Assembly: GCA_049296095.1 (NCBI GenBank)
Contig: JBAQRV010000001.1
Location: 450,001 to 482,000, forward strand
Length of the DNA: 32,000 nt
Source of the DNA: Candidatus Saccharimonadota bacterium
Lineage (GTDB): Bacteria; Patescibacteriota; Saccharimonadia; Saccharimonadales; Saccharimonadaceae
Direction of reading: 5' to 3'
Shown here piece after piece: positions 1,471-26,522 of this stretch. How positions within the stretch are numbered: the first letter of the stretch is position 1; every line of letters starts with the position of its first letter. Both the position numbers and the translations under genes were made by a program. The notes below the pieces were generated by a model. That model saw only the letters and a program-made list of their open reading frames with translations, ran no database searches and was not told the DNA's origin.

Positions 1471-1695
1471 TTACTGACTGCCCGAGCCGACTTGTACTTC
1501 GACTGCTGGGTTAATCGCATTTTCATTAAAGATGGCTGGGTCAGGCTCGACAATGTCGGCATTAATCTTCTCAACGGTTTTCACCTTTACACTTTCACTC
1601 TCAGCCCCACCAAAAATTGCTTGGGTGGCAAAGAATGAAACAAGGATGCTCACCGAGGCGATAAGGACAATCATTGCTATATCGGTCTTTTTCAT
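1471..1695 (-). CDS. Small bitopic membrane protein of the pilus operon (unassigned function)
   Basis: ORF 1471..1698 begins GTG-ATG. The ATG at 1695 shares its A with the TGA of the upstream pilO-like gene (TGATG) and is preceded by AAGGTGG. One N-terminal TM helix (IAMIVLIASVSILVSFFATQAIF) is followed by an acidic ~45-aa tail. The stop is 13 nt before the pilB ATG. Confidence 0.6.
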   Translation of the reverse strand: MKKTDIAMIVLIASVSILVSFFATQAIFGGAESESVKVKTVEKINADIVEPDPAIFNENAINPAVEVQVGSGSQ

Positions 1696-2387
1696 CACTG
1701 CACCACCTTATCAGTTAACTCAATCGTTTTGGCCGGCTCATAAAAGGCCCGAGCCTGAACCGACATAAGTTGCTTGTTACCCTGACTCTCAATTCTGAGC
1801 GACAGAATATCAATCGCACGAATCGAACGCTCGAGATTAGTCAGTACTTGCTTCAAGGCCTCTGGACTGCCGTTGACTGAGAATTGGAAAGTAATCTGAT
1901 TGCCAGACACACCAGCTGAAGCATCCTGCTCGTTCGCATTGATGTCAGACAAGGATTCAACCCCAACGACAGGGTCAACTTGCAATGATTCAATCGTAAG
2001 CCCTGGGATACCTGCTAATAGTTTGTTCTGGAGTGATGCACCGAGTGCCAGCGAGTTCGCATCAGCCGGTAAAGCATCGAGGATTACCTGAATGGTCTGA
2101 TCGTCATCACTCGCGAGGACCGATTTAAGGGCAGTGTTCGTGTCGAGAACGCGAACCTGAGTCTCTAGCTCGGGAATAACCTCGTTGTTGCTCTTGAGAA
2201 TTGCGACAGTTTTTTCTTTTTCGGCTAATACTCGTTCGTTATAGATCAATTTTTGACCGAGGAAATAAGCGACGACCAAAGCACAGCCAACAATCACCGA
2301 ACCAGCCGCAATCCACAGGAACATAGTACGATTTGCCTTGGCAATTTGAGTACGCTTGCGAAGTGCTGCATTATTAGTTGGTTGCAT
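1695..2387 (-). CDS. pilO: PilO-like type IV pilus alignment-complex protein
   Basis: 230 aa with a short basic N-terminus, one TM helix (MFLWIAAGSVIVGCALVVAYFL), a coiled-coil-like stretch and a globular C-terminus, which is PilO architecture. It sits directly after pilN with a 1-nt TAATG overlap. GGAGGA lies 9 nt upstream. Confidence 0.6.
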   Translation of the reverse strand: MQPTNNAALRKRTQIAKANRTMFLWIAAGSVIVGCALVVAYFLGQKLIYNERVLAEKEKTVAILKSNNEVIPELETQVRVLDTNTALKSVLASDDDQTIQVILDALPADANSLALGASLQNKLLAGIPGLTIESLQVDPVVGVESLSDINANEQDASAGVSGNQITFQFSVNGSPEALKQVLTNLERSIRAIDILSLRIESQGNKQLMSVQARAFYEPAKTIELTDKVVQ

Positions 2388-3118
2388 TACTGCGTTCCTC
2401 CTGTCTGTTCGGTATCAACCGCTCGCGGTGCAAAGATACTTTTTGGAATCCCTAGGTATGAGTCGGTGACGTTACCCTCATTAATCAACTTGATCACAAT
2501 TGCTGGGACAGTTGGAGAAAAGAGCTCTTGAGCGTAATTAAATCGCAAGGTAAAACGCAATACCTTTGCGCCCGTCGTATCCTCGCCATAGCTAATATCA
2601 GAAGTACTGATGTTTGAAGCAAGTTTTACTTCCTTACTCTCATCATCCTCTGTATAGGTAATGACAGCACCATCGACAGTCTTCTTAAACACCTCGAGTA
2701 CGTCGTATGCACGGGTCTGACCTTCGAGCGATATTTGTGACAACTCAGCATCGATTAACAGATTTGATATCTGAACATCATTCGGTGCCGGCGGAATAAC
2801 TGCCGATAATACATCAAAGATGCGTGAATCAATTTTTTTCTGATCATTCAATTCAGAGATCATCGATAACTGGTTCTGAATCGTCAGCACCTTAGAAAGA
2901 TCCTCGACACTTGCCAGCTGTTCGCTCCCTTTTTTGATATTATCATCAGCCAAGGCACTGCGTACCGTTTGAACACCAAAGACATAAGCAGCCAAAAGCG
3001 CGACAACCGCCAGTGCAATAATACCTGTGAGGATCGAGAAAGAAATCACGACTGAACGAACCCGCTCAGCTTTGATCAGCTCTTGCTTGACGTCAGGGAT
3101 AAGGTTGATTTCAATCAT
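2387..3118 (-). CDS. pilN: PilN type IV pilus alignment-complex protein
   Basis: N-terminus MIEINLIPDVKQELIKAERVR matches the conserved PilN INLLP motif that binds PilM, followed by one TM helix. ATGA overlap with the pilM stop. AAGGAA Shine-Dalgarno upstream. Confidence 0.8.
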   Translation of the reverse strand: MIEINLIPDVKQELIKAERVRSVVISFSILTGIIALAVVALLAAYVFGVQTVRSALADDNIKKGSEQLASVEDLSKVLTIQNQLSMISELNDQKKIDSRIFDVLSAVIPPAPNDVQISNLLIDAELSQISLEGQTRAYDVLEVFKKTVDGAVITYTEDDESKEVKLASNISTSDISYGEDTTGAKVLRFTLRFNYAQELFSPTVPAIVIKLINEGNVTDSYLGIPKSIFAPRAVDTEQTGGTQ

Positions 3119-4161
3119 AGCTTGTTCCTTCGCTCGGCCAAACCAATCACAGTCGCAAACTCAGAAGCGATTGTCATCAATTGCTGCTGGTCAGTCTGCG
3201 AGACGCTCACCTTTTGCCATGGATTAGCAATTGAAGACGGAATACCGGTCTTTGCGGTCACGTAGTCACCGAACTGTGGGACGATTGCACTGTAGCCAGA
3301 CAACAGAATGCCTCCAACTGGCGTATTCGGGTAGCGCGTCTGGAAGAACTTGATCGACTTTGTCAGCTCGACCGCAAAGTTATCAAGCGTTGATTCAATC
3401 GCGCGGTAAACTTGACCTTCCAAACGATCTGGTGCGAGACCAAATTTCAAAATGAACTGTCGGGCCTGGTCTTCTTGAACGTTTAAGTTCTGGACCGCTG
3501 CTTTAATCAGTGAGCGAATACCGGTTGGAATCGTACGAACTAAGCGCGGCGTGTCGCCAAAGGTAATTGCCAGATCAGTCGACATTTCACCGACATCGAT
3601 AATCAAACGTGCATCAGGAATACCCGATGGAAGCAACGAGCGAATCATAGCCAGTGGATCAGGTTCAGACGCAATCACATTCAAGCCCAGACCTTCGATG
3701 AACTCCAGTCGCTCTTCGGCGTAGCTATTGGCTGTACTGGCAATCAAGACCTCCTGCATCTTTGGATCATGCAAAGAAGTGCCAAGTAGTGCCCAATCTA
3801 CCTTGGCTTCATTGACTGCCATCGGAATGTATTGATCAACCTGATACTTGATAGTGCTCTTTAGTTCGGTCTCTGGCATGATTGGCACCTCAATCACTGT
3901 CGTAAACGTCTTACTCGAAGGCAGCCCAATCACAACGTTTCTTGTTTTAATGCCACTCTGCCCTACTGCAGTCATGATCACCTCGCCGAGACGGCGAAGA
4001 CTTTCAGGCGAAGAACTGTTAGCAGTCTTCTCGTCTAGAGGGGCGTACCCAAAGTGTTCCAGGCTCCAACTGTCAGGACCCGTTGAAGAAAGCTGTACCA
4101 CTCGCACAGCATTCGTTCCTATATCTAGAGCAAAGAAGTCGCCCACGCCACGTAATGCCAT
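3115..4161 (-). CDS. pilM: PilM, actin-like ATPase of the type IV pilus alignment complex
   Basis: FFALDIGTNAVRVVQLSSTG at the N-terminus, DVGEMSTDLAI and an overall actin/FtsA-like pattern. The longest ORF (to 4290) would overlap the upstream gene by 76 nt and adds a non-conserved leader. Internal starts at 4173 (MIGNMALRG) or 4161 (MALRG) are more likely. 4161 was chosen because TATAAT (4172-4177) lies 10 nt upstream of it. The start is uncertain by about 12 nt. Confidence 0.85.
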   Translation of the reverse strand: MALRGVGDFFALDIGTNAVRVVQLSSTGPDSWSLEHFGYAPLDEKTANSSSPESLRRLGEVIMTAVGQSGIKTRNVVIGLPSSKTFTTVIEVPIMPETELKSTIKYQVDQYIPMAVNEAKVDWALLGTSLHDPKMQEVLIASTANSYAEERLEFIEGLGLNVIASEPDPLAMIRSLLPSGIPDARLIIDVGEMSTDLAITFGDTPRLVRTIPTGIRSLIKAAVQNLNVQEDQARQFILKFGLAPDRLEGQVYRAIESTLDNFAVELTKSIKFFQTRYPNTPVGGILLSGYSAIVPQFGDYVTAKTGIPSSIANPWQKVSVSQTDQQQLMTIASEFATVIGLAERRNKL

Positions 4162-4214
4162 ATTGCCTATCATTATACCGAAAGCATAAGCGTAAAAGCA
4201 AGGTGATTTACTAC

Positions 4215-6137
4215 TTAAAAACGAGGAGGAAGCTCGGTGGTCATAATCGTCTGTAAACGTCCTGCCGTCGCCGAGTAAGCTGTTGCCCACAAATAAGCGT
4301 CAGGGCGAAGGTTGAATACCTCGGCTGGCGCGCCGCTACTTGCCCCTGTACCCGAGCCAGCCGTGCGGTACAGATAAAGATGCCGTGCCATAACTGGGCC
4401 ATTAACGGTCAATCGATTACTACAGTTGCCCGCATTCAATTGCGTGACATTCGCAACATCAGTACAAGTGACGATATTTCCCGTCGTTCCTGAAGCAATC
4501 AGCCAAGCATCGACTTGGGTGACATCGCCTTCAATCCGTATCTGATCAGCAATAATCACCACCTGAGGAATATTATCAATAGTTGTCAGCGTCTCACCGG
4601 TGTAGACGATATTGTCACGAATGATCACCGTTGCAGTTGGTGCATTAATAATCACCCACTTACCCTTACCAATAGGGCCGCTACTCGTCAAGGACACTGT
4701 TCCGGTAGCCGAATACACATCACTCTGAGCCGCCGCGACATTCCATGTAGGATTTGCTCCTAGAGGAGTGCGAGCAATCAGTCGCGAGCTGATGTCTGGA
4801 AGCTGTTGCTGTGTTCTATAGCCACCTTTTGGTGTACTCGCATTACAGGTCGTATTAGTGCCCGTATTCGTGAAGCTCAAGAAGCTCACATCACAAAAAG
4901 CACTAGTTGCAGTCGAGCCGCCACTGTAGCCTGCTCCAGACGCCATGCCTGCGATCGAACCTGAAACAACCAGCCCATACTCACCCCAGCTTCCAAAAAT
5001 GCGACTTTCACTGCTAATTGTTTTTGTAGAAGTCGAGGTTTGGACATTCGACACTCCACCCTTGCCAACCCACAGGTCACCACCCAGGACCTGAACCTTT
5101 GGTTTTTTGGCGATGGTCACACAGAACGGCGTACTATGTCGCCAATTCCCATTGCTCTGCGTGGCGGGCTGCACCGAAAGCGCATAACATATCCTCGTGC
5201 CGACAGGGTAGTCACCCAGCGTCTGAGGCCCAACCGGCAACGGCGGACTCACCCCTCTCTGGAAAACTCCCGTGCCGTTAGCAATAGAGGTTGCGCCGTT
5301 GCCATAATGTGCTTGTGGCGTACTGCCATTCTCGCCAGCACCTGGAACAGGTAGCCCAGGGTTGACGCGGAAGGTATTCACCTGCCACTGAGCGTTGGTA
5401 CTAGCGGTTGCACCAGTGTTATTGACTGTTGGGGTTAGGTTGACCGTACTACCACCACCTTCGCTAATCGAAGAACTGTTACTGGTAATTGATGGGTTGA
5501 GGTTGAAATCAACCGATGGTGGACCTGAATAATCACCGACAGGATTCATACAACGGGTATCGACGATATAGACGATACTGCCATTTACCCTAAAGACAAC
5601 AGCCGTATACGTATTGTTGCAATTTGGCTCAAAATACTGATTTACGTCTTCTCGATTAAAACTTATCGCCGAGCCCAGACAACCGTTTGCATTGTATTGC
5701 CTTGCTTCAACACTCATTGTAGTAGTTCTGACGCGTCGATCGAACTCAGCCCAATCGGCCGCTGAAATACGTTCCCATTTCTTACCAGCATTATACTGCA
5801 CACCACGCCCTAGCATGGTATGAACAACGTAGCGAGCACCGATAGCATCAAGTCCGTAACAGTTATATGCATTGTAAGGTCGGCTCTCGGCTTCACGTAC
5901 TGCGTTAATAAAGTTGTTATGGCTCGCACCACCATGATAGCCATCGCTTTTAATGTTACATTCGTTGTAACCTAGGTACCGCGGACTTGCTCCTGAAAAA
6001 TAATCGGTACCACGGTGGAAAATCGCTGCGGCTTCCTGATCGTTCAATAGAGGCCCAACAATAGTCGCCAATAACAAAATAAGAATAATGGCAATACGGC
6101 GAGAGACCAGAATAAAACGTTGGTGCACCTTACCCAT
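4215..6137 (-). CDS. Large secreted Cys-rich, beta-rich protein of unknown family, encoded inside the pilus operon
   Basis: 654-aa ORF. The likely start is ATG 6137 (MGKVHQRF), overlapping the upstream stop as ATGGGTAA with GAGG about 9 nt upstream. Sec-type signal or anchor RRIAIILILLLATIVGPLL. 11 Cys. Gly/Thr/Ser/Asn-rich and poor in Lys/Glu. The C-terminal part has short alternating beta-like repeats (WVIINAPTATVIIRDNIVYTG, VVIIADQIRIEGDVTQVDAWLIASG) and ends ELPPRF. I recognise no family motif. Confidence 0.75.
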   Translation of the reverse strand: MGKVHQRFILVSRRIAIILILLLATIVGPLLNDQEAAAIFHRGTDYFSGASPRYLGYNECNIKSDGYHGGASHNNFINAVREAESRPYNAYNCYGLDAIGARYVVHTMLGRGVQYNAGKKWERISAADWAEFDRRVRTTTMSVEARQYNANGCLGSAISFNREDVNQYFEPNCNNTYTAVVFRVNGSIVYIVDTRCMNPVGDYSGPPSVDFNLNPSITSNSSSISEGGGSTVNLTPTVNNTGATASTNAQWQVNTFRVNPGLPVPGAGENGSTPQAHYGNGATSIANGTGVFQRGVSPPLPVGPQTLGDYPVGTRICYALSVQPATQSNGNWRHSTPFCVTIAKKPKVQVLGGDLWVGKGGVSNVQTSTSTKTISSESRIFGSWGEYGLVVSGSIAGMASGAGYSGGSTATSAFCDVSFLSFTNTGTNTTCNASTPKGGYRTQQQLPDISSRLIARTPLGANPTWNVAAAQSDVYSATGTVSLTSSGPIGKGKWVIINAPTATVIIRDNIVYTGETLTTIDNIPQVVIIADQIRIEGDVTQVDAWLIASGTTGNIVTCTDVANVTQLNAGNCSNRLTVNGPVMARHLYLYRTAGSGTGASSGAPAEVFNLRPDAYLWATAYSATAGRLQTIMTTELPPRF

Positions 6138-6699
6138 TCTGTAATGCCTCGATCTTACTCGTATAATATGCGCCATCACCCAGACCCTCGCGTGTCACGT
6201 CCGGATTTTCACTCAAGAATTGGGCGGTTTCTTGTGCATCCCTATCGCGGGCTAGCTCATAGTAACGAATCGCATTGGCAATATCACCCTTTGTCTCGTA
6301 AAGATAGGCGACAAAGGCGGCCGTGCTCGCAGTCGGTGCTGCCTGATCGGCTTGTAGTGCATATTCGAGTGCAGTGTCGGTTCCCGCATTTGGATCAGAC
6401 GAAGCTATCACTGCTTTGGTACTATAAAGTTCCGATTTTACTTCTCCACTTGTAGTATTCTCAATTTCTTTGTTGAGCAAACTATATGCCTCTTTGGTAT
6501 TACCTTCAGCGGCTAGTGTTTGAGCCTTTTGTGATGTTGCATTTATGACCGGTGCCTCTGTTTCCGGCTGAGTTTGACTCGCCTGTTCGACAGTGTCCTT
6601 CGGACGAAGCAAAACATAAGCCGTCACCGTACCAGCCGCGATTAATATAATGGCAATGATCACTATCAATATAGTCTTCTTCGATCGCAGTCCAGCCAC
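6130..6699 (-). CDS. N-terminally membrane-anchored TPR-like protein, first gene of the pilus operon
   Basis: GTG start at 6699. TM helix TILIVIIAIILIAAGTVTAYVLL. The C-terminal half has a TPR-like signature (AFVAYLYETKGDIANAIRYYELARDRD; EAYSLLNKEIE). A promoter-like TTGCCA-17-TATACT lies upstream. Confidence 0.65.
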   Translation of the reverse strand: MAGLRSKKTILIVIIAIILIAAGTVTAYVLLRPKDTVEQASQTQPETEAPVINATSQKAQTLAAEGNTKEAYSLLNKEIENTTSGEVKSELYSTKAVIASSDPNAGTDTALEYALQADQAAPTASTAAFVAYLYETKGDIANAIRYYELARDRDAQETAQFLSENPDVTREGLGDGAYYTSKIEALQNG

Positions 6700-10334: not shown

Positions 10335-12593
10335 TTAACCGAGTTCTTCATCATCAGGATTGCCAGCAGTCCCACTACTAAACACGTCGTCAAAGCTACT
10401 CACAAGGACGTCACGAGGTCGTGCACCGTCGGCAGCGCCGATAATCCCCTGCTCTTCCATTTGTTCAATCAAGCGAGCTGCACGAGCGTAGCCAACGCGC
10501 AGACGACGCTGTAAGAGACTGGCGCTTGCTTTGCCGGCATCAATCACACAGCGGACGGCGTCGCGGTACATATCATCGTCACCGCCGCCGTCAAAGTCCA
10601 TCACGACTCCGCCTTTACCATTCAAGGTTACTGGTTGACTGACCACTTCATCGTTGTACTGTGGAGGCGACTGCATACGGAGGTGATCAGTGATTTTCAC
10701 GACTTCTTCATCGGTCACCCACGCACCCTGGATACGCTTTGGTTTGCTCATGCTTGGTGTCAGGAGTAGCATGTCACCTTGACCCAGGAGCTTTTCAGCA
10801 CCAACCTGGTCAAGAATGGTTCGTGAGTCAATTTGTGAAGCAACGGTAAAGGCAATACGCGCCGGCACGTTAGCCTTAATCAGACCGGTAATAACATCGA
10901 CAGATGGGCGCTGAGTCGCGAGCACCAGGTGCACACCAACAGCACGAGCCTTTTGGGCCAAACGGACAATCAAGGCTTCGACATCGCGAGCTGCTGCCAT
11001 CATCAGGTCGGCCAACTCATCAATCACAATCACGACATACGGCATAGCGCCTTCTTGGTGTTGCTGATCGTGACCCTCTTCGTCTTTAACGACGACCTTT
11101 TTACTGCCTGAGCGGATCATGGCGTTGTAGGTGGCGATGTCACGAACCTTGTGCTCGGCGAGGAGCTTGTAGCGACGCTCCATCTCGTTAACGGCCCATT
11201 TGAGGGCGCTAATCGTCTTTTCAGGCTCGGTGATGACAGGGGTCAAAAGGTGTGGAATATCTTCATACGGCGCCATTTCAACCTGTTTTGGGTCCACCAA
11301 GATCAGTTTCATTTCACTCGGGCTGTTGTGATACAAGAGGCTTGTTAACAGCGTATTAATCATGACCGACTTACCCGACCCAGTCTGACCAGCAATCAAA
11401 AGGTGGGGCATCTTGTTTAGTTCACCTAACGTGGCCTGGCCAGCGATATCCTTACCAATTGCAAACGCCAACGGTTCAGAACTGCCGCTCCACTGTGGAC
11501 TCGTCAAGATTGAGTGCAAGCGAACATCGGCCGCTTTACGGTTCGGTACTTCGATACCAACGGCTTTTTGGCCAGGAATTGGCGCTTCCATACGAAGTGA
11601 TTGCGCCGCAAGGTTGAGGGCGATATTTGTTTCAAGCGCAGTAATACGGCCCAACTTGACGCCACTTGGTGGTCGCAGGGTATATTGAGTGACCTTTGGC
11701 CCAATGTTGGCGCCCTCCATATCGACATCAATACCGAATTCACCAAGGGTATCCTTGATGATCTGGGCATTCTGCTGCACGTCACCAGCATCGGCTGGCG
11801 ACTGTTTCTTTTCAAGCAGATCGACGCTTGGCGCTTTCCAGTTAGGGTCACTGACCGTGACCAGTGCGGCCTGCGCCTCGGCAGCTTTGTCATGTGGTGT
11901 CGCATTCTTGAAGCTTGAGGTACGTGAAGTCTTGTCATTCCCATCCATCGTTGGGACACCGGCATTCAATTTAAAGTCAGCGATAGTAGATTTCGGCGCA
12001 TCTAGAGCAGCGGCGCTACGCATGACGTTCACATTTGCCTCCTGTTCGCTGGTATCGCGACGCGCCAGTTCCCAGATTTTCTTGATAATCGTAAATGGTG
12101 AGACACGGATGATGAATAAGGCCGTAATGATGATCAGCATAATGTAGATGAAGGCCGCGACCCCCCCATTCACAAGCATCAACAGGCCACTATTAGCGAG
12201 GTCACCGATAAAGCCGCCCGTCGTCTTACCATCGGCATTCTTTAGTAGACCAAACAAGCCCGCAAACCACACAAGTGAGACGCCAGTGGCGATCTTCATA
12301 GCCAGTGGAAGGCGGTTCTCTTCGGCGCGGAAGACCTCAACCGCGACATAGATAAATAAGAGAGGTACTACATAGACGGCGTAACCAATGCTGTTGAGAG
12401 CAGCCTGATACAACCAATCAAGAATCGGCCCACCGATGTGGAACCAACCGAGGACAAGTAAAAATGAGAACGCTATTAAAACAAGCGCACCAACCTGTGC
12501 CCAGAACCCTACTGGTAAGTGATGCTGTGCGGCAACCTGTTTTGATGCCTTCTTGTATGTTCGTCTTTTTCTTTTTGCCATAATCTTTATCAT
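10335..12593 (-). CDS. ftsK: DNA translocase FtsK/SpoIIIE
   Basis: N-terminal polytopic membrane domain, a linker, and a motor domain with LLIAGQTGSGKSVMINTLLTSLL (Walker A) and VVIVIDELADLMM (Walker B). C-terminal winged-helix gamma domain (ASASLLQRRLRVGYARAARLIEQMEEQGIIG). An alternative start is at 12581 (MAKRKRR). Confidence 0.95.
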   Translation of the reverse strand: MIKIMAKRKRRTYKKASKQVAAQHHLPVGFWAQVGALVLIAFSFLLVLGWFHIGGPILDWLYQAALNSIGYAVYVVPLLFIYVAVEVFRAEENRLPLAMKIATGVSLVWFAGLFGLLKNADGKTTGGFIGDLANSGLLMLVNGGVAAFIYIMLIIITALFIIRVSPFTIIKKIWELARRDTSEQEANVNVMRSAAALDAPKSTIADFKLNAGVPTMDGNDKTSRTSSFKNATPHDKAAEAQAALVTVSDPNWKAPSVDLLEKKQSPADAGDVQQNAQIIKDTLGEFGIDVDMEGANIGPKVTQYTLRPPSGVKLGRITALETNIALNLAAQSLRMEAPIPGQKAVGIEVPNRKAADVRLHSILTSPQWSGSSEPLAFAIGKDIAGQATLGELNKMPHLLIAGQTGSGKSVMINTLLTSLLYHNSPSEMKLILVDPKQVEMAPYEDIPHLLTPVITEPEKTISALKWAVNEMERRYKLLAEHKVRDIATYNAMIRSGSKKVVVKDEEGHDQQHQEGAMPYVVIVIDELADLMMAAARDVEALIVRLAQKARAVGVHLVLATQRPSVDVITGLIKANVPARIAFTVASQIDSRTILDQVGAEKLLGQGDMLLLTPSMSKPKRIQGAWVTDEEVVKITDHLRMQSPPQYNDEVVSQPVTLNGKGGVVMDFDGGGDDDMYRDAVRCVIDAGKASASLLQRRLRVGYARAARLIEQMEEQGIIGAADGARPRDVLVSSFDDVFSSGTAGNPDDEELG

Positions 12594-15645: not shown

Positions 15646-15936
15646 CTAAAAGAAAGAAATGAAGACAAACACACCAAGTGCGATTGCCAGGACAACTGCC
15701 AGAGCGACGAGGATAATCATTCGCTTTTTTGAGCTTCCAGTAGCAGCTGGAGTCGGCGCTGGTGATGATGGAGCAGTTATTGAAGGTGTGGGAGTACCGA
15801 GTGGAGCAACTGGTTGCGCATCAACAGCCGGCATATTTGGCTCAACCACAGGAGTACTCTCAGGTGGAGTCTGTGGAGGTGTCATAGGTGGCGTTGTTGG
15901 ATTCGATTCAGGGGTCTGGTTTGTGTCCGGGTTCAT
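15646..15936 (-). CDS. Pro/Thr-rich protein with a single C-terminal TM helix (tail-anchored topology)
   Basis: AAGGAG lies 7 nt upstream of the ATG. About 70 aa of P/T/A-rich sequence, then SSKKRMIILVALAVVLAIALGVFVFISFF at the very C-terminus. No recognisable family. Confidence 0.5.
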   Translation of the reverse strand: MNPDTNQTPESNPTTPPMTPPQTPPESTPVVEPNMPAVDAQPVAPLGTPTPSITAPSSPAPTPAATGSSKKRMIILVALAVVLAIALGVFVFISFF

Positions 15937-16007: not shown

Positions 16008-18113
16008 TTACTGAGCGTCTTTGAGGCTCAGGCTCAGACGACCACGATCATCGATACCGATCAGTTTCACTTTGACAATCTGGCCTTCTTTAAGAACATC
16101 TTCTACCTTCTCGACACGTTCGTTTGAAAGCTGAGAGATATGCACCATACCGTCAGTGCCAGGCATGATATTAACGAATGCGCCGAACTCTTTAATACTG
16201 ACGACCTTACCTTCGTAAATCTTGCCAACTTCTGGCTCTTCAGTCAGGGCACGGATCCATTCGAGCGCTTTTTCGATAGCGGCAGTATCAGTCGCGGCAA
16301 CGGTAATCAAACCGTCGTCCTTGATGTCAATTTCAGCACCAGTTTCAGCGGTAATCTTGTTAATCACTTCCCCGCCCTTGCCGATCACTGCGCCGATCTT
16401 CTCTGGGTTGATCTTGATCTTCTCAATGCGTGGTGCATATGGACTGAGTTTTTCGCGCGGCTGCGCAAGTGTCGTCAACATGTGCTCGAGAATGTGTGCA
16501 CGACCCTTTTTAGCGGTCAGAAGTGCTTCTCGTAGAATTTCAACTGGCAAACCGTGAACCTTCATGTCCATTTGGAGAGCCGTGATACCATCGGCGGTAC
16601 CAGCAGACTTGAAGTCCATGTCGCCAGCGAAGTCTTCGGCATCAGCGATGTCAGACAGAATGTGTGCAGTGTCGCCGTCCATAATGAGGCCCATAGCGAT
16701 ACCAGATACTGGTGCCTTGATTGGCACACCGGCATCCATCAGTGCCAAGATCGAGCTACAAGTTGCTGCCATCGAGGTTGAACCGTTCTGGCTCATGATC
16801 TCGGTGACACTACGAATGGCGTATGGGAAATCCTCTTCGGCTGGCAGGACTGGGATAACGGCACGCTCTGCGAGGTAGCCGTGACCAATTTCGCGGCGGC
16901 CTGGGCCACCGAGTCGCTGCACTTCACCGACAGTGTAGCCTGGCGCGTTGTAGTGGTGCATGTAACGACGCTCACCATCACTGACTTCCATCGTATCGAC
17001 GATCTGTGCGTAGCTGAGTGGTGCAAGCGTGATAATGTTCATGCCTTGAGTCATGCCGCGTGTGAATAGTGATGAACCGTGAGTACGAGGTAGGATACCG
17101 ACCTCACTTGACAGTGGACGGATTTCATCGAACTGGCGACCATCTGGACGCACCTTGTGTTCAACAATGCCATTTCGGACATCTTTATGAACGGCAACGG
17201 TAAAGGCTTCATCATACTTATCACGAGAATATTCATCACCGATTTTTTCACCCATTTCTTCGTGGAAAGCCCAACGAAGTTGGTTGATTAGTTCATTGCG
17301 TTCTGGGTATGGCTTGCGAACCGCTTCGCCGAGCTTGCCATGCACCCATGCGTCGACTGCCTTTTGAATGTCCTCATCTGGAAGAACAAGGGTGTACTCC
17401 TGTGCAACTGGTGCAACTTTCTCGGCCAATTCCTTTTGAAGCTTAATAGCTGGTTGGTAGTGTTCGAATGCCCAGGCAAGTGCATCGGCAACGACTTCTT
17501 CATCGACTTCATTAGCACCAGCCTCAACCATGGTAATGCCCGATTCAATACCGGCAACCACAAGGTCAAGATCGCTCGCTTCACGTTCTTCAGGGGTTAA
17601 GAAAGCCTTAAACTCACCATTAACACGGCCGATACGGAGGCCTGAAACAGGGCCATCGAAAGGTGTTCCGGTTAGCATAAGCGCAGAGCTGGCTGCGATC
17701 ATAGCGATCATATCAGGACGGAATGATGGGTCCATCGAAAGGACACTTGCGACTACTTGAACCTCTTGGCGATAGCCTTTTGGAAATAGCGGGCGGATTG
17801 GGCGGTCGATAATACGACCGATCAGGATTGCTTCGTCGCTTGGACGGCCTTCCCTCTTAATGAAACGACTGCCGCTGATCTTGCCAGCCGCATACATTTT
17901 TTCTTCATAGTCGATTGAGAGCGGGAAATAATCGAGAACAACTGGTCGGGTACCGACCTGGGCAGTCCCGAGAATAACGGTATCGCCGTAAGTAACCATG
18001 ACTGAGCCAGTGCTACGGAACCCGACGCGGTTTACTTCAAGTGTCAAAGGACGACCTTCGAACTCAGTGGTAACTTTAATAATATCCTTGCCGTAAGGGT
18101 TGATAGTTGCCAT
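16008..18113 (-). CDS. pnp: Polyribonucleotide nucleotidyltransferase (PNPase)
   Basis: 701 aa with two RNase PH-like domains, a KH domain (INPEKIGAVIGKGGEVINKI) and an S1 domain (GKIYEGKVVSIKEFGAFVNIMPGTDGMVHISQLS). AAGAGG Shine-Dalgarno upstream. Confidence 0.97.
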   Translation of the reverse strand: MATINPYGKDIIKVTTEFEGRPLTLEVNRVGFRSTGSVMVTYGDTVILGTAQVGTRPVVLDYFPLSIDYEEKMYAAGKISGSRFIKREGRPSDEAILIGRIIDRPIRPLFPKGYRQEVQVVASVLSMDPSFRPDMIAMIAASSALMLTGTPFDGPVSGLRIGRVNGEFKAFLTPEEREASDLDLVVAGIESGITMVEAGANEVDEEVVADALAWAFEHYQPAIKLQKELAEKVAPVAQEYTLVLPDEDIQKAVDAWVHGKLGEAVRKPYPERNELINQLRWAFHEEMGEKIGDEYSRDKYDEAFTVAVHKDVRNGIVEHKVRPDGRQFDEIRPLSSEVGILPRTHGSSLFTRGMTQGMNIITLAPLSYAQIVDTMEVSDGERRYMHHYNAPGYTVGEVQRLGGPGRREIGHGYLAERAVIPVLPAEEDFPYAIRSVTEIMSQNGSTSMAATCSSILALMDAGVPIKAPVSGIAMGLIMDGDTAHILSDIADAEDFAGDMDFKSAGTADGITALQMDMKVHGLPVEILREALLTAKKGRAHILEHMLTTLAQPREKLSPYAPRIEKIKINPEKIGAVIGKGGEVINKITAETGAEIDIKDDGLITVAATDTAAIEKALEWIRALTEEPEVGKIYEGKVVSIKEFGAFVNIMPGTDGMVHISQLSNERVEKVEDVLKEGQIVKVKLIGIDDRGRLSLSLKDAQ

Positions 18114-18257: not shown

Positions 18258-18286
18258 TAAAAAAGAACTCCGCTTACTTGCGGAGT
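18258..18286 (-). terminator. Rho-independent terminator/attenuator between rpsO and pnp; the rpsO stop codon sits in its loop
   Basis: Minus-strand RNA: ACUCCGC-AAGUAA-GCGGAGU (7 bp, extendable to 9 with a G-U) followed by UCUUUUUUAUU. The UAA of rpsO (18276-18274) is in the loop. Confidence 0.8.
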
Positions 18287-18540
18287 CCGAGTGCTGCGAC
18301 TGTTGCCTTGTAGGCGTCGAAGTCTTTTGCCTCAAGGTATTTCAGAAGTCGTTTACGACGAGACACCATCTGAACCAGGCCGCGACGAGCCATGTGGTCG
18401 TGCTTGTTGGTCTTTAGGTGCTCGGTAATTTCCTTAATACGAGTCGTGAGGACTGACGCCTGTGCCTGTGGGCTACCAACGTCGTCTTTGTGAGTCTGTG
18501 TCAGGGCAAATGCCTGAGCTTTGTTTTCTGCTGTAATCAT
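18274..18540 (-). CDS. rpsO: 30S ribosomal protein S15
   Basis: GSPQAQASVLTTRIKEITEHLKTNKHDHMARRGLVQMVSRRKRLLKYL is a classic S15 sequence. 88 aa. Confidence 0.95.
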   Translation of the reverse strand: MITAENKAQAFALTQTHKDDVGSPQAQASVLTTRIKEITEHLKTNKHDHMARRGLVQMVSRRKRLLKYLEAKDFDAYKATVAALGLRK

Positions 18541-18549
18541 TGGATATGT

Positions 18550-18578
18550 ATTGTAGCAGAATCTCTCCCCTGTTGCAA
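18550..18578 (-). promoter_or_regulatory. Candidate rpsO promoter, with the -10 only 9 nt from the ATG
   Basis: Minus strand: TTGCAA (18578-18573), 17 nt, TACAAT (18555-18550), then acatatcca and ATG (18540). No Shine-Dalgarno. Confidence 0.6.
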
Positions 18579-18614
18579 GGGTTCAGGACAGCTATTTGTT
18601 TTGCAGCGTAAGCA

Positions 18615-18643
18615 TTGACTTTTCATCTGTTAAATGCTATTAT
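18615..18643 (+). promoter_or_regulatory. Candidate promoter of the VirB6-like gene, with the -10 only 9 nt from the ATG
   Basis: TTGACT (18615-18620), 17 nt, TATTAT (18638-18643), then tgcaacgat and ATG (18653). No Shine-Dalgarno. Confidence 0.6.
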
Positions 18644-18652
18644 TGCAACGAT

Positions 18653-21337
18653 ATGGAACTTGCGAGGTCCACTTCGCGCGGAGGGCTATCCGTACGAAGC
18701 GTTTTTACTTTTGCCCTGGCCGCGATCTTTGCGGCGATCTTATGGGTAACCTTTGCCAGCCCGGCAACCCACGCAGCTGATGCCAGCTGGAGTGGATCTG
18801 CTATTTTGTACGAAGGAAATAAGTACCTTGCGACAAACGATAAAGAAATCCTCAAAGATGTCGGGCTTGAGTCAGCCAGTAAGGTATATGTCTTTGTCGA
18901 TCCCGCACAAGCAGATGGGAACCCCAGTTCAAGCAATGGCACATCGCCGCCCACCGCTCGCAAGATACGCTTGATCTACTTTGACGCAAATACTGATTCT
19001 TCTACCGCCACAGAGGCCACGTACAAGGATCTTACTTACGTTGGTCAGGGAAATTATACGAACCCTTCGGCAATAAAGCCGATTACCTTCTCACAAACTG
19101 GCGCAGAGGGCACAACTTCCTGTGATGTCGATACAGGACTTGGCTGGATTATCTGTCCCGTCACCACTACCCTCGCAACCGCCATGGATGCGATATATGA
19201 CATTCTCACCGGATTTCTTGAAGTCCGCCCAGTGGAAACTGGCCAGGACAATGCATTGTACCGAGCCTGGAAAATTATGCAGGGATTTGCGAATATCGCG
19301 TTCGTCATTGTCTTCTTGATTATTATTTACTCGCAGCTGACAGGTGCAGGTATTAGCAGCTACGGTCTCAAAAAACTACTGCCACGTTTGATCATTGCCG
19401 CACTGCTTGTCAATTTGTCTTACTTTATCAGTTCGATTGCGATCGATATCTCGAACATTCTGGGGTATTCTTTGCAAGATATATTTATTTCGATGCGCAA
19501 TAGCCTGGTCGGCACCGAAGGAAACAGTTGGGACGAAGCTGGGATAACCAGCTGGGAGAGCCTCGCAGAATTTGGACTTTCTGGAGGCACTTTACTTGCA
19601 GCGGGTGGTACCGCCGCCTTTATCGCTGTGGCTGACTTTGGTCCTACGGTGATCTTCCTTATCCTACCCGCACTAGTAGTTGCCCTCATTGCAGTACTCG
19701 TCGCACTAGTCGTCCTGGCAGCACGTCAAGCAATTATCATCATTCTCGTCATTCTGTCGCCACTAGCATTTGTCGCTTATTTGCTCCCAAATACTGAGAA
19801 GTGGTTCGGTAAATGGCGCGATACTTTCTTCACCATGCTCTTCCTTTTCCCGGCTTTCTCAGTTGTCTTTGGTGGATCGCAACTTGCCGCAACAGCCATT
19901 ATCCAGACAGCCGACTCGATTAACCTCGTTATTTTAGGAATGCTGGTGCAGGTTGCGCCGCTGTTTATCACTCCCCTGCTAATTAAGCTTGGTGGCGGAT
20001 TATTGGGACGGATTGCCGGGCTGGTTAATGACCCTAATAAGGGTATTATTGATCGTACGCGGAAATTTGCAGAAGATCGAACGCAGAATGCGAGGGCACG
20101 CCGTATCGCAGATCCTAAGGGTTGGCAGTTAATGCGAAGAAATGCTAGATGGCGCTATGATCGCCAAAAAGACCGCGAACAATGGCGTGCGAAGCACACT
20201 GAACGTGCTGATGCCAACTGGGCAGGTCGTCCACGAGCTACCCGTATAGACAATTACGGTCGCGAATCAGGAGATATAAAGACCCTGGCCGAGACAAATT
20301 CCGAAACACGATACAATAATGCAAAACTTGTTCAAAATTCCCGACTTCAATTATTAGACGTTGATCTTCAAAATGCCAAAGGCACACTTGCAAATGCTCA
20401 TCACGATGTAGAATTACAATATAAGAATCTCAAATCGAGAGATACTGGTAATGGATTCAATATTATCCCAGCTCATCTTGCCTCTCGAGCGATGATTGCC
20501 CGCCACAATGCACAACATTCAAGCGCTATCACTCGTGCAATTCACGAAGCCGAAAACATGCAACAACAGGAATACGCGAAGGACTTACAACAATCTGAAG
20601 CACTCCGTCGTTTTGCTGGAGGTATTAACCCACACGGTGCCGACTCAGCACTGGCTGCAGCTATTAACACTGTCCGTGAAGCGTACGGTAAGTCCGTCAC
20701 TGAAGCCCGAGCGATTAATAAGCACTTCGAACTATCTTCAGGTGAACGACAGCGACACGGTCGTGGAGAAACTATTAGGAAGATCAAGGATGGTGCAGTG
20801 CGTATATTTACCCCCGAAAGTACATTCACCCGTGAAGCTGCGATCGAAGATCAAATAACTACCGGAACCGTTGAAGAGGTGGAAGAGTTCGTTCGGCTAT
20901 CAGGTACTCCAGAATTCGCTGACTTCCGATCGACTATCGCTGAAACACTTGCTAAGAATGGTGGAATGACTGCAAAAGCTCTCCATATGGGGGGCCAGTC
21001 AATCGACGATATCGCACAGGGTCGAGTTGTTGGCGAAGAGGGTCTCGACTGGATTACGGCACGAGCAATTGCTAAAGGTAAACTGTCTGAAAAGGATGTT
21101 GCAGGGCTTGATGCCAAGGCAGTTGAACGATTCCGAGCAATCGTCACTTCTAACCGTGGGCGCGCAAACCTCTCTGCCACCGAACGGGCAATTATGGACC
21201 AACGTATTGGTGAACTATCTAAGGTTGTCCGAGAGGCTATGACTGGTGATGAAAAGACTAATATTAAGCCGAGTGCTGTCGATGATCTGCTGGCAATTGC
21301 ACGCCTCACCGATGAGAACTTTGACCCTGACGCATAG
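18653..21337 (+). CDS. Large polytopic membrane protein, TrbL/VirB6-like (TcpH-like architecture): secreted N-domain, about 7 TM helices, and a ~430-aa charged cytoplasmic C-domain
   Basis: The start at 18653 (MELARSTSRGG) is preferred because the ORF-track start at 18596 lies upstream of the predicted -35. Signal peptide ending ATHA-AD. TM block with ILSPLAFVAYLLPNTEKWFGKWRDTFFTMLFLFPAF, which resembles the TrbL/VirB6 signature region by eye. The C-terminal Arg/Glu/Ala-rich region is probably helical. The coding call is solid. The family assignment is tentative. Confidence 0.55.
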   Translation: MELARSTSRGGLSVRSVFTFALAAIFAAILWVTFASPATHAADASWSGSAILYEGNKYLATNDKEILKDVGLESASKVYVFVDPAQADGNPSSSNGTSPPTARKIRLIYFDANTDSSTATEATYKDLTYVGQGNYTNPSAIKPITFSQTGAEGTTSCDVDTGLGWIICPVTTTLATAMDAIYDILTGFLEVRPVETGQDNALYRAWKIMQGFANIAFVIVFLIIIYSQLTGAGISSYGLKKLLPRLIIAALLVNLSYFISSIAIDISNILGYSLQDIFISMRNSLVGTEGNSWDEAGITSWESLAEFGLSGGTLLAAGGTAAFIAVADFGPTVIFLILPALVVALIAVLVALVVLAARQAIIIILVILSPLAFVAYLLPNTEKWFGKWRDTFFTMLFLFPAFSVVFGGSQLAATAIIQTADSINLVILGMLVQVAPLFITPLLIKLGGGLLGRIAGLVNDPNKGIIDRTRKFAEDRTQNARARRIADPKGWQLMRRNARWRYDRQKDREQWRAKHTERADANWAGRPRATRIDNYGRESGDIKTLAETNSETRYNNAKLVQNSRLQLLDVDLQNAKGTLANAHHDVELQYKNLKSRDTGNGFNIIPAHLASRAMIARHNAQHSSAITRAIHEAENMQQQEYAKDLQQSEALRRFAGGINPHGADSALAAAINTVREAYGKSVTEARAINKHFELSSGERQRHGRGETIRKIKDGAVRIFTPESTFTREAAIEDQITTGTVEEVEEFVRLSGTPEFADFRSTIAETLAKNGGMTAKALHMGGQSIDDIAQGRVVGEEGLDWITARAIAKGKLSEKDVAGLDAKAVERFRAIVTSNRGRANLSATERAIMDQRIGELSKVVREAMTGDEKTNIKPSAVDDLLAIARLTDENFDPDA

Positions 21338-21985
21338 TTATGACTGAAGGTTGATAGCGTCCCTCACCGACCACTCCGCCACCTTCGTCCGTCGCAACTC
21401 CACACAATACCCTCCCGTCCCTAAAACTTTCCCGATACCCTCGGCAAGCGTTCGGATATAAGTTCCACTACTGACATGGACGCGAATCTTAAGTTCTGGA
21501 TAACTATATTCAATGATATCGAGGCTAAAGACAGTTACCTGGCGTTCTGGCATTTCAACCACCTCACCTTTCCGAGCAAGCTTGTAGGCACGCTGGCCGT
21601 TGATCTTGATGGCGCTGTATATCGGTGGACGCTGGGTAATTTCGCCAACAAACTGGCCAAGAGCCTTCTGAACCTCCTCGAGCGATGGCTGGACAGCCGA
21701 AACATCGGTAATCTCTCCTTCTGGATCCCCTGTCGTACTGGTCTGCCCTAAACGGATTGTCGCCTCATACACTTTATCGAGTTTCGAATAATTTCCGGCA
21801 TTACGACACTCCTTACCCGTCACAATAATCATAAGGCCAGTCGCGAATGGATCAAGCGTCCCTGTATGTCCGACCTTTGCTTTCTTACCCAACTGCTCTG
21901 AAAGCTGGCGTCGAACTCGGGCCACAACACCAAAACTGGTGATCCCAGCGGGCTTATCGATCAATAGAACACTATCCTCTTGCAT
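21338..21985 (-). CDS. truB: tRNA pseudouridine(55) synthase TruB, short form without a PUA domain
   Basis: LLIDKPAGITSFGVVARVRR, GHTGTLDPFATGLMIIVTG (catalytic Asp motif), SGTYIRTLAEGIG. 215 aa. Its stop abuts the VirB6-like stop with 0 nt between them (TAG|TTA). Confidence 0.9.
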   Translation of the reverse strand: MQEDSVLLIDKPAGITSFGVVARVRRQLSEQLGKKAKVGHTGTLDPFATGLMIIVTGKECRNAGNYSKLDKVYEATIRLGQTSTTGDPEGEITDVSAVQPSLEEVQKALGQFVGEITQRPPIYSAIKINGQRAYKLARKGEVVEMPERQVTVFSLDIIEYSYPELKIRVHVSSGTYIRTLAEGIGKVLGTGGYCVELRRTKVAEWSVRDAINLQS

Positions 21986-22006: not shown

Positions 22007-23539
22007 TTAAGACTGTCCAGGAATCTTGAACTGCGTCGGGTCACTGGGACCTGCCGCTGGCGGACTAGTCGGTGGGGTTGGAGCAGGTGGCGCTACCGGA
22101 GGCTCTGGTGCAAGAATATCCCCAAGGCGCTCAGGTTGCTGAGCCGTCGCATCCGGCATATACGCAGCAGAAGCATCTCCAACAGGTGTTTGAGAAAAGT
22201 CAGGTAATGGCGGTGGCATCGGCAATCCGAGGTCGGCTGGTGCTGGCGGAGTTGGTGGGATCGGTGTTGGCGCTACTCCCCCGTCCATCGCATAGGCCGA
22301 ATGAACAGGCTCATCTGTTGCTGGAGGTGTCGTCGCGACACTATCTTGATCAGAGGTAGTACCAATCAGTCCAATGCCTGAATCAGCGTTTGAAGCACCA
22401 TTCATCGGTGTCTCATAGGCCGGACCCGAACTGAGGTAAGAATGAGTTAAGATCGTCTTATTTTTATCGTCCTCAGCTTCTCGTCGGGCATCTTCGGCTG
22501 CTTTTTCTGTTGTTGCATTCAGCGTGCCGCCCATTGATGGTTCTGAGGCAATATCAGACGGCTCTGGCGCGTAAGCGTCCTGAACTTTGATATCTTGAGT
22601 GTCGAGTGCTGTTGTTGCCGCCTCGACCGCCTCAGCTTGTTCGGCCGCCTTGACTCGCTTGTCGAGCTGTTCGAGAGTTTCGTTAGGATCATGACTGATA
22701 TTGAGACTTGTCTTTGATTCTGTCGGTGGCTCAGTCGCGACCAAGTCAGAGCTTGGCGTTGATTCACTAATATCGTGCGTTTCTTCGAGTTTTGAAGCGA
22801 TCAGTTGCTGGTCCGCCCCAGCAGCCATCAGCTGCGCAGCCGTCGTCATGACTCGTGAAGTAGTGTGCGTATTGCTAAAGCGGTCAGTTTCGGCAACAAT
22901 ACCGGTGAGAAGCGCTGTCGCAATTGAAGCATCGAGCAATGATTTCGTTTTATCAGACTTGAGCGCTTCAGCCAGCCCTGCCACCATTTCAGTGAGGCTG
23001 CTCGATTGAGCATCATGCCAATCAATACCACCAAGCGTACTCGTCTGTTCACCCGCAGTGACCGTAATGATAGTCGCGTCGTGTAGAATTTGTCCGTGAT
23101 TTTCGAGGGCCGCATCAAGGTGGTCTTGATTATCTACCCCAAGCGCTATCACTAATTCAACATTAAAATCACCCTGGCTAAACTGAAGATCATCACTGGT
23201 AATGGTTGTTTTGTAAGGCGTAATGAAGATCTTGACCACATCACCTTCTAGCTTGTAGCGAAGATGATCAGCCTTCTCTTTATCAAGCGCAATGATGAAG
23301 TCACGGAGACTATCGGTCGTATCATCAAAAGTCTTCTCAGGTTCAAGGAATGAAATGGCTGGCGGAATTGTTCCACTAAACACCGCAGTTGGGTGTTTTT
23401 CAAGCTTATCAAGAATCAATGTCATACCGAGAGCGGCCGACAACGCATCAACAGATGGGTCGTTAGAGACCGTTACGAGGATGTTTGTCGAGGCTTTTAT
23501 CTTTTCGACAATCTGTTGTTTGGCTTTGATGTCGTCCAT
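22007..23539 (-). CDS. DHH-family (NrnA-like) domain with degenerate catalytic motifs, fused to a ~260-aa Pro/Thr/Ala/Glu-rich low-complexity tail
   Basis: The N-terminal 250 aa follow the NrnA pattern: ILVTVSNDPSVDALSAALGMTLIL aligns with HxxPDGDAxGS, and TALLTGIVAETDRFSN aligns with GIxxDTGxF. The DHH triad position reads TAG (IITVTAGEQ). No GGGH (DHHA1) motif is seen. The tail contains PPTPPAPADLGLPMPPPLPD and PPVAPPAPTPPTSPPAAGP. Confidence 0.65.
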   Translation of the reverse strand: MDDIKAKQQIVEKIKASTNILVTVSNDPSVDALSAALGMTLILDKLEKHPTAVFSGTIPPAISFLEPEKTFDDTTDSLRDFIIALDKEKADHLRYKLEGDVVKIFITPYKTTITSDDLQFSQGDFNVELVIALGVDNQDHLDAALENHGQILHDATIITVTAGEQTSTLGGIDWHDAQSSSLTEMVAGLAEALKSDKTKSLLDASIATALLTGIVAETDRFSNTHTTSRVMTTAAQLMAAGADQQLIASKLEETHDISESTPSSDLVATEPPTESKTSLNISHDPNETLEQLDKRVKAAEQAEAVEAATTALDTQDIKVQDAYAPEPSDIASEPSMGGTLNATTEKAAEDARREAEDDKNKTILTHSYLSSGPAYETPMNGASNADSGIGLIGTTSDQDSVATTPPATDEPVHSAYAMDGGVAPTPIPPTPPAPADLGLPMPPPLPDFSQTPVGDASAAYMPDATAQQPERLGDILAPEPPVAPPAPTPPTSPPAAGPSDPTQFKIPGQS

Positions 23540-25916: not shown

Positions 25917-26522
25917 CTACAATGAAACTTTTTTGATCAATTTGTCAGAACCGGGAATTTGATTCGTAAACAATTCGGTAAGTTGGGTCGCGCTCGCTTT
26001 GAGAGACCCGCTAGAACCCTGACAGGTCGAGGTCCATAGCGTTTTAACCGAGTTACCGTTTTCAAGGACGCTAAATTGATAGACCCGACCAGTCGCACAG
26101 ATGCCACGAATGTCATTCTTGTCACCGGCAAGCTCAGTCCCCTTCACGAGGTTCGCCTTGTCGAGCGCATAGACAAACTCTTCATAAGCGGCGACGCTAT
26201 TACCCAACGTCGTCCTATCAACCACTGTATCAAGATAGCCTGTAAAAGTACTTAACTGACGACTACTTGCTGAAATATCAATCTTGTACGAATGGAACTC
26301 TTCGTCAGCCACAATCGGGCCGCGAACCGTCATACTAACGCTATGGCTCGCACTCGTATTGAGCAAAGCCTCTTTACTCACGTCAGCGACAGCAGCTGGT
26401 GCGGTTGAAGTGCCAGAAAAGAAAACGACTCGAGCAAGCGAGACCAAGGCAGCGACAGCAATAATGATAATAACGATAACGAGAATGATTGGAAGGATTC
26501 GTGAAGTTCTGTAATTAACCAT
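25917..26522 (-). CDS. Hypothetical N-terminally anchored extracytoplasmic protein
   Basis: TM helix ILPIILVIVIIIIAVAALVSLARVVFF followed by a ~160-aa domain with 2 Cys. It is tightly packed between the HAD gene and fpg, with AAGG-type Shine-Dalgarno upstream. No recognisable family. Confidence 0.6.
   Translation of the reverse strand: MVNYRTSRILPIILVIVIIIIAVAALVSLARVVFFSGTSTAPAAVADVSKEALLNTSASHSVSMTVRGPIVADEEFHSYKIDISASSRQLSTFTGYLDTVVDRTTLGNSVAAYEEFVYALDKANLVKGTELAGDKNDIRGICATGRVYQFSVLENGNSVKTLWTSTCQGSSGSLKASATQLTELFTNQIPGSDKLIKKVSL

Follow-up and report, generated by a model that had tools for sequence, protein, structure and literature searches.

A type IV secretion system (T4SS) is conserved across the Saccharibacteria and was described for TM7x (PMC7427843). 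In S. epibionticum ML1 it is encoded by the cluster SEML1_0006-0019, which carries a pilin array, is essential in transposon sequencing (Tn-seq) and encodes neither a coupling protein nor a relaxase that can be recognised (PMC10633639); its products include two large VirB6-like proteins, SEML1_0013 (1088 aa) and SEML1_0011 (998 aa) (Wang et al. 2023, PMC10633639). Few other machines have been shown to be indispensable for the epibiotic lifestyle of these bacteria, and which proteins make up the system is still under study. In this work, we analyzed a 32-kb stretch of the genome of a Candidatus Saccharimonadota bacterium (contig JBAQRV010000001.1 of GCA_049296095.1, positions 450,001 to 482,000; hereafter the window) and specifically the VirB6/TrbL-like gene that lies there between rpsO and truB. 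We refer to this gene as X ('VirB6a') and to a second, paralogous VirB6-like gene as B6b. Taken together, our results make it very probable that X is one of two VirB6-like subunits of a chromosomal, MPF-FATA-like Saccharibacterial T4SS and was relocated long ago to the rpsO/truB slot. The T4SS itself has already been described; what is new is the ancient, widespread relocation of one of its two VirB6 paralogs.

X resembles the two ML1 proteins in phylum and system, in being large and polytopic with a TrbL/VirB6-like core, and in possessing a helical C-terminal domain, labelled 'ARM repeat' in ML1 by structure-based annotation. Both ML1 proteins are essential in Tn-seq, and their genes have the VirB2-like pilin array on one side and PrgI on the other, in a layout (pilins / VirB6-like / small open reading frame (ORF) / VirB6-like / PrgI / VirB4) that is also that of the loci L005, L090 and L091 of our survey. 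Whereas both VirB6 genes of ML1 are in the cluster beside dnaA, one of them lies between rpsO and truB in the window. The strict ML1 ortholog of X may be either SEML1_0013 or SEML1_0011, gene order varying among lineages (types B and C). VirB6 genes away from the cluster have been counted before: in the survey by Quinonero-Coronel et al., 176 of the 480 VirB6 homologs from Patescibacteria lie away from virB4 (PMC12102498). As background only, Tables S7/S8 of a further study contain VirB6 matches far from the array in several metagenome-assembled genomes (MAGs), without gene context, and the true Saccharimonas aalborgensis has both VirB6 copies in the cluster (PMC12592800).

Among better-known VirB6 proteins, R388 TrwI and Agrobacterium VirB6 (PF04610; 7O3V, 8RT9) are, as proposed for X, polytopic inner-membrane T4SS subunits, and they give its best fold match. 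TrwI differs in its length (342 aa), in having neither a signal-peptide ectodomain nor a 434-aa cytoplasmic domain and in belonging to a diderm MPF-T system, and its direct sequence similarity to X is not significant. PrgH of pCF10 (MPF-FATA) is part of a monoderm T4SS and encoded just upstream of PrgI and VirB4, but it has 266 aa and no extra domains, and its hhalign comparison with the X family is not significant. The 'extended VirB6' proteins, which include TcpH of pCW3 (reviewed in PMC12857230), share with X a VirB6-like transmembrane (TM) core followed by a large hydrophilic C-proximal domain; TcpH (832 aa) likewise serves a monoderm T4SS and has no Pfam match. The original prediction had ascribed a TcpH architecture to X. 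The two are alike in layout, each being an extended VirB6 whose cytoplasmic tail is large, but this is an analogy only: homology between them is not detectable, the hhalign probability being 2% with the family profile and 0.2% with a combined TM-core profile. Furthermore, the C-terminal domain of X is restricted to the Saccharibacterial family, and TcpH, which a plasmid encodes, acts together with a relaxase and a coupling protein, whereas the Saccharibacterial system has neither in recognisable form (PMC10633639).

Position of X and of the T4SS cluster in relatives

We surveyed orthologs by scanning the family alignment against one genome per species (GTDB representatives), which confirmed 566 relatives; the context counts cover the best 80 of them, with flanks labelled by marker proteins. 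X occupies the rpsO/truB slot, as in the window, in 36 of the 80 loci (37-59% identity to X, Microsaccharimonas included); it is linked to T4SS genes in 38, beside five to seven T4SS_pilin genes and/or PrgI and VirB4; and its flanks hold no marker genes in the other six. The order rpsO / X / truB / DHH-like / rpsT / holA / fpg recurs at 61% (L003), 44% (L004) and 41% (L006) identity, with the stops of X and truB separated by 0 nt, overlapping by 4 nt and separated by 5 nt, respectively. T4SS-linked copies follow one of two orders, either pilins / X / small ORFs / B6b / PrgI or, in Nanosynbacter and other oral lineages, pilins / B6b-like / X / PrgI. At L005 the ortholog (44% identity) is divergent beside seven T4SS_pilin genes, with a second TrbL_3 gene and PrgI downstream of it. 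Complete clusters (L091, L092) comprise the pilin array, X, a small ORF, B6b, PrgI, a TraC-like gene and VirB4, then a gene for a protein of about 1000 aa, a lysozyme or amidase, two small ORFs and recF-dnaN-dnaA.

Full-length cluster orthologs with all three domains of X (35-48% identity over >90% of the length) are found at L005, L018, L019, L082, L090, L091 and other loci. Relocated and cluster-resident copies do not differ in their three-domain architecture or in their invariant residues, and in a neighbour-joining tree of X and B6b (TM core, ~250 residues, without support values) the cluster-resident X orthologs group with the rpsO/truB copies, apart from B6b. X is orthologous to a subunit encoded inside the Saccharibacterial T4SS cluster. 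In the same tree the rpsO/truB copies form two groups with cluster-resident copies between them, a pattern compatible with one move or two. Although the original prediction had described X as an orphan, it has at least 3708 homologs, those with names being Candidatus Saccharibacteria or Saccharimonadales, and its orthologs belong to a described, essential T4SS; an identical protein is present in the NCBI MAG GCA_049286885.1 and on a 710-kb contig.

A contig from one relative shows where the remaining T4SS genes can be. At locus L036 the X protein is 53% identical to that of the window and falls in the same branch of the X tree; X and truB still converge there, and beyond truB come a lysozyme gene and, at 5 kb, VirB4. 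The VirB4 of L036, used as a query, led to P0260 on the 287,493-bp contig CAYMOS010000001.1 (GCA_964392265.1), which is also the contig of L020, a full rpsO / X / truB locus. About 113 kb away on this contig lies a T4SS cluster (L093) with HSP20, five pilin genes, a 287-aa ORF, one TrbL_3 gene, PrgI, a TraC-like gene, VirB4, cell-wall hydrolases and recF-dnaN-dnaA, and its TrbL_3 gene is of the B6b type, without the X-specific N- or C-terminal domain. X, located at rpsO/truB, is the only gene missing from the T4SS cluster of this contig. L095 is another cluster of this form without X, and its VirB4 is named Microsaccharimonas in one source. With VirB4 of the cluster-type locus L063 as query, the matches P0036, P0141 and P0125 all had X inside the cluster.

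From these relatives we strongly infer that the window genome also encodes the rest of the T4SS. Two points tell against this. The search for T4SS genes in the window's own genome covered the 32-kb window, where we found no VirB4, PrgI, T4SS pilin or second VirB6 paralog, and the split layout with its T4SS is documented in relatives whose X is 51-53% identical to that of the window. The original prediction had proposed locating virB4 elsewhere in the genome, and virB4 was indeed found in relatives (the X-less clusters L093 and L095 and the hybrid locus L036) and not in the window; the contexts in relatives essentially bear out its second alternative, that X might be one component of a dispersed T4SS serving host interaction. 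About half of the sampled species encode one VirB6-like subunit some 100 kb away from the cluster. Searches confined to the neighbourhood of virB4 miss X there, which affects inventories, essentiality screens and structural modelling.

The same contexts bear on the possibility that X has left the T4SS and is now a stand-alone channel, for example a pore or receptor for the uptake of nutrients or nucleic acids, expressed with translation genes. Such a role would agree with the separate promoter of X, divergent from that of rpsO, with the lack of any T4SS gene within 32 kb, with the stability of the rpsO/truB position across many species and with the much faster evolution of X (35-60% identity) than of VirB4 (88-94%) in the same lineages. 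However, relocated and cluster-resident X share architecture and invariant residues, and genomes with a relocated X keep a T4SS cluster that lacks exactly X, which fits a part still needed by the machine and not a diverged extra copy. We consider this explanation improbable.

Still less can be said for X as the remnant of a horizontally acquired conjugative or integrative conjugative element, inserted between truB and rpsO and reduced to its VirB6 gene, a reading that we find hardly credible. The truB-rpsO linkage is widely conserved in bacteria, and X splits it in an orientation opposite to that of its neighbours, as an inserted element might. Against this, (i) the window contains no integrase, relaxase, tRNA or meaningful flanking repeats, and the G+C content across X (0.47-0.50) is that of the flanks and uniform over the window, so that none of the marks of an integrated element (integrase or relaxase, repeats or a tRNA target, deviant composition) was found across this piece of ordinary Saccharibacterial chromosome; (ii) all homologs found are Saccharibacterial, including a few on contigs assigned to other phyla, which are probably mis-binned; (iii) the arrangement is common to 36 species representatives, in several of them with its tight stop-to-stop junction; and (iv) orthologs elsewhere sit in a chromosomal T4SS. 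The view that X is not a recognisable conjugative element, already part of the original prediction, is thus upheld, whereas its description of the gene as inserted is contradicted by a position shared down to 37% identity and by a host-like composition.

Comparison of synteny at truB-rpsO therefore reveals an old, shared position in place of a fresh insertion. X is not a recent insertion and its position is old and vertically inherited, because the rpsO/truB slot is shared among species whose X has diverged to 37% identity and the stop-to-stop junction with truB is kept in several of them. It had been proposed that finding the same gene at the same position in all relatives, with no T4SS genes anywhere in the genome, would speak against a link of X to a T4SS: the former was found by half, and the latter is contradicted in a relative (GCA_964392265.1).

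Gene order near the origin offers a further view of this history. In ML1, rpsO, mscL and argS are about 4 kb from the pilin array, and in L036 argS and mscL lie just upstream of X, in a hybrid order (L036:3779-17978) of mscL, argS, two small ORFs, X, truB, a 253-aa ORF, lysozyme/CHAP, an 887-aa ORF and VirB4. To judge by these two arrangements, the T4SS region and housekeeping genes have evidently been reshuffled near the origin more than once.

Some observations on these loci stand apart from the argument. In Saccharimonadales, the top 120 VirB4 matches are 87-100% identical across lineages and X is only 35-60% identical in the same lineages, a very large difference in rate within one machine. 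At two loci of different species (L005:10904-13939 and L018:13117-16155) B6b is interrupted by an in-frame TAG that directly follows the TM core, occupies one and the same alignment position in both (...GGS*HM / ...GGS*NM) and has an ATG one codon later. It resembles a conserved gene fission or a site of read-through; no such interruption is present in the other 22 B6b paralogs examined. Finally, typical Saccharibacterial T4SS loci are filed under the titles Verrucomicrobiia bacterium, Chloroflexi bacterium and Streptomyces caniscabiei (L029, L086 and P0163), probably as mis-binned or contaminating contigs of the epibiont.

Domains of X and their relation to VirB6 and TrbL

X and its domains, all on the plus strand, are as follows.

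18653..21337, plus strand: coding sequence of X, VirB6/TrbL-like, 894 aa and stop (gene calls, ortholog alignment, weak precomputed PF19590)
18653..18772, plus strand: residues 1-40, basic N-terminus and hydrophobic signal peptide or membrane anchor, AxA-like site THA/AD (hydropathy, model)
18773..19267, plus strand: residues 41-205, beta-rich extracytoplasmic domain (alignment, model)
19268..20032, plus strand: residues 206-460, polytopic TM core, VirB6/TrbL-homologous (hydropathy, model, fold match, paralog homology)
20033..21334, plus strand: residues 461-894, arginine-rich linker and then an all-helical domain, predicted cytoplasmic (hydropathy, model)

The AlphaFold model was built on an alignment of 47 orthologs and has a mean pLDDT of 69. 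The N-terminal hydrophobic segment (residues 16-40 by hydropathy) is modelled as a helix at 15-34 and is followed by an ectodomain of ~165 aa, beta-rich over residues 41-160 at a pLDDT of about 60-80. This ectodomain ends in the Cys157...Cys168 'GWIICP' segment, which paralog B6b has too; C157, G164, W165 and C168 are invariant in the 47-ortholog alignment, and the cysteine pair would fit a disulfide-bonded extracytoplasmic region. Hydropathy and AlphaFold agree on 5-7 TM helices between residues 205 and 458 (long hydrophobic helices within 201-458), with a basic loop at 230-245 and an acidic one at 266-308. A near-invariant stretch of the core reads A-x-R-Q-A...P-L-A-F-V-A-x-L-L-P-N-T-E-K-x-F-x-K-W, which in X itself is RQA...SPLAFVAYLLPNTEKWFxKW. 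The C-terminal domain (434 aa) is helical with 31% charged residues; its linker (461-560) is arginine-rich with a net charge of +12, and pLDDT reaches 85-93 from about residue 640. By the positive-inside rule the tail is predicted to be cytoplasmic and the N-terminal domain to be outside. X is in this way predicted to have the polytopic form of the TrbL/VirB6 superfamily (at least five TM helices, N-terminus out and C-terminus in), and the published VirB6 topology fits it. The layout first proposed from the sequence, with a signal peptide, an ectodomain, a TM core and a charged C-terminal domain, is therefore sound.

A search of 1.84 billion representative sequences found the C-terminal domain in 198, nearly all of them proteins of ~850-1000 aa matched in their C-terminal halves; the fold matches of this domain (Foldseek) are weak and of the generic helical-repeat kind. 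To judge by the 198 representatives and the size and matched half of nearly all of them, the domain is a family-specific invention, confined to the Saccharibacterial family. We conclude that the core of X is VirB6-like and that the two flanking domains are additions.

Four lines of evidence relate the core to VirB6. (i) Precomputed Pfam tables list PF19590 (TrbL_3) on X, where it is marked weak, and on X orthologs at E<=1e-5. (ii) The X family profile matches the B6b family with an hhalign probability of 100% (E 5e-107, 325 columns), and the two proteins match in BLASTP at 1e-70, with 36-42% identity in the core. (iii) B6b of L063 passes the gathering score of Pfam TrbL (PF04610) with 27.5 vs 25.9 bits, over profile positions 3-210 of 215, and 6 of 22 B6b paralogs match this family at E<=0.01; as yardsticks, TrwI scores 171 bits and pCF10 PrgH 29 bits, a marginal match at the level of B6b. 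(iv) When the X model was compared with 350,542 PDB chains (Foldseek), the best match was R388 TrwI/VirB6 (8rt9_F; probability 0.97, target TM-score 0.42-0.45), followed by further TrwI chains (8rtd_L, 7o3v) at probabilities of 0.84-0.97. Because of the precomputed TrbL_3 matches, the homology with the paralog, the paralog's passing of the TrbL cut-off and the fold match, we conclude that X is a divergent VirB6/TrbL relative, as the original prediction had supposed. In addition, SEML1_0013 of ML1 was annotated as TrbL/VirB6 from its structure (PMC10633639).

Several results of the direct comparisons count on the other side. Local Pfam and NCBIfam scans gave no match for X, its TM core or the 47 orthologs, even at E=10, so that the profile searches suggested with the original prediction came out empty locally and positive, if weak on X, in the precomputed tables. 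The structural comparison, also suggested then, did place VirB6 (TrwI) first in the PDB, at E 0.14, but the TrwI matches have E-values of 0.14-0.7, an rmsd of about 10 A and a TM-core pLDDT of 55-75. In hhalign, used here against single reference sequences, the X family matches TrwI with P=7e-4 and a probability of 26% over 40 columns, and shows no significant match to PrgH or TcpH. A profile search with the X family and a phmmer search of PDB sequences gave nothing useful. The TrwI alignment places the PLAF...LPNTEKWFxKW segment of X onto TrwI residues 179-218, and a combined profile of the TM cores of X and its paralog again matches the single TrwI sequence weakly, over 40-45 columns overall. 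As a side observation, PF19590 was absent from a local Pfam-A scan of proteins listed with it in the precomputed tables, some of them at E<=1e-5, a discrepancy that may stem from different library versions or from differing filter behaviour.

The empty local Pfam and NCBIfam scans and the non-significant Foldseek E-value would also be expected if X were a polytopic transporter or permease without relation to VirB6, its weak TrbL matches being due to hydrophobic composition, and the KEGG label of the ML1 counterparts is K01992, an ABC-2 permease. Yet the TrbL match of the paralog spans the whole Pfam profile and passes a curated cut-off, the top fold match among all PDB chains is VirB6, with several chains, X lies between VirB2-like pilins and PrgI/VirB4 in 38 genomes, and the structure-based call of SEML1_0013 was made independently. 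These observations leave an unrelated transporter very improbable, and X is best regarded as a divergent VirB6/TrbL relative.

Proposed role of X in the T4SS

As a subunit of the Saccharibacterial T4SS, X would form a membrane translocon together with B6b, PrgI/VirB3, the TraC-like protein and the VirB4 ATPase. The VirB6 oligomer of R388 is reportedly the base of the stalk and the proposed site of pilin assembly, and by analogy X may also be a platform for the assembly of VirB2-like pilins. Its ectodomain, probably held by a disulfide bond, would face the cell surface and meet these pilins, a contact that fits the ancestral arrangement because X stands there back-to-back with the pilin array; the 434-aa helical tail would face the cytoplasm and may contact the ATPase or substrates. 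In the putative ancestral layout X was divergent beside the pilin array, in the dnaA-linked T4SS cluster. An old chromosomal rearrangement in the lineage of the window would then have moved X to the rpsO/truB slot, where it has presumably been passed on ever since, with a promoter of its own that would drive it divergently from rpsO. We infer this role for the relocated protein from its orthologs.

It is tempting to speculate further, given a T4SS without recognisable coupling protein or relaxase (PMC10633639), that the two VirB6 paralogs make up a hetero-oligomeric platform whose helical domains (461-894 in X) dock substrates in place of VirD4, and that the separate, rpsO/truB-linked and apparently leaderless control of X turns the amount of this platform into a growth-coupled switch of host interaction. 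This extended proposal is, in our estimation, rather unlikely.

The start of X, its neighbours and other features of the window

The six-frame ORF list gives a plus-strand ORF at 18596..21337 (913 codons) amid minus-strand genes, and coordinate 18596 is merely the first possible TTG of a longer version. The true start of X is almost certainly ATG 18653, giving 894 aa, because public gene calls place it there, the alignment with orthologs begins at residue 1-2 of the 894-aa version, and the best promoter match ends 9 nt before this ATG, inside the longer ORF. A start at TTG 18596 was rejected on these same three grounds. The surroundings of X are as follows.

18541..18652, no strand: divergent intergenic region, 112 nt, with two promoter-like sites (sequence inspection)
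18274..18540, minus strand: rpsO (ribosomal protein S15), divergent neighbour of X (Pfam)
16008-18113, minus strand: pnp (PNPase) (Pfam)
21338..21985, minus strand: truB, 215 aa, convergent neighbour whose stop abuts that of X (Pfam)
22007-23539, minus strand: DHH-like gene, 510 aa (weak Pfam DHH)

Further to the right lie S20, holA and fpg, and further to the left UDG, RNase J and FtsK (Pfam). The plus-strand gene that splits the minus-strand DHH-like gene and truB from rpsO and pnp is present just as first described (Pfam, ORF list). With ATG 18653 as the start, both distances then given are those measured: 112 nt between rpsO and X, and 0 nt between the X stop TAG (21335-21337) and the truB stop (21338-21340).

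The promoter-like site of X (18615-18643, plus strand; TTGACT-17-TGcTATTAT) is the best match in the region and ends 9 nt before ATG 18653; that of rpsO (18578-18550, minus strand) also ends 9 nt before the start codon. As a Shine-Dalgarno sequence has no space in 9 nt, this suggests, from inspection of the promoter region, that the mRNAs of X and rpsO may both be leaderless.

At 215 aa, the TruB of the window is too short for the usual C-terminal PUA domain: it covers the catalytic domain and roughly half of TruB_C_2. Relatives have an equally short TruB (215-229 aa). The adjacent 510-aa protein (22007-23539) matches Pfam DHH at E=1e-3, below the cut-off, its gene keeps its position in essentially all loci with the window layout, and its ML1 counterpart SEML1_0073 has been labelled a DHH phosphoesterase on structural grounds.

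Two minus-strand ORFs, at 25917-26522 (201 aa) and 15646-15936 (96 aa), have no Pfam match, and both are annotated as genes in the public contig of the window; the former has counterparts of 199-203 aa at the same position in L003, L004 and L006, and the latter is absent from these three. At the left end of the window, positions 1695-6699 (minus strand) hold a type IV pilus assembly block with PilM (3115-4290), a weak T2SSM_b/PilO-like match (1695-2387) and ORFs of 243, 654 and 189 aa without Pfam match. The FtsK of the window (10335-12593) is of the ordinary chromosomal type, with a gamma domain.

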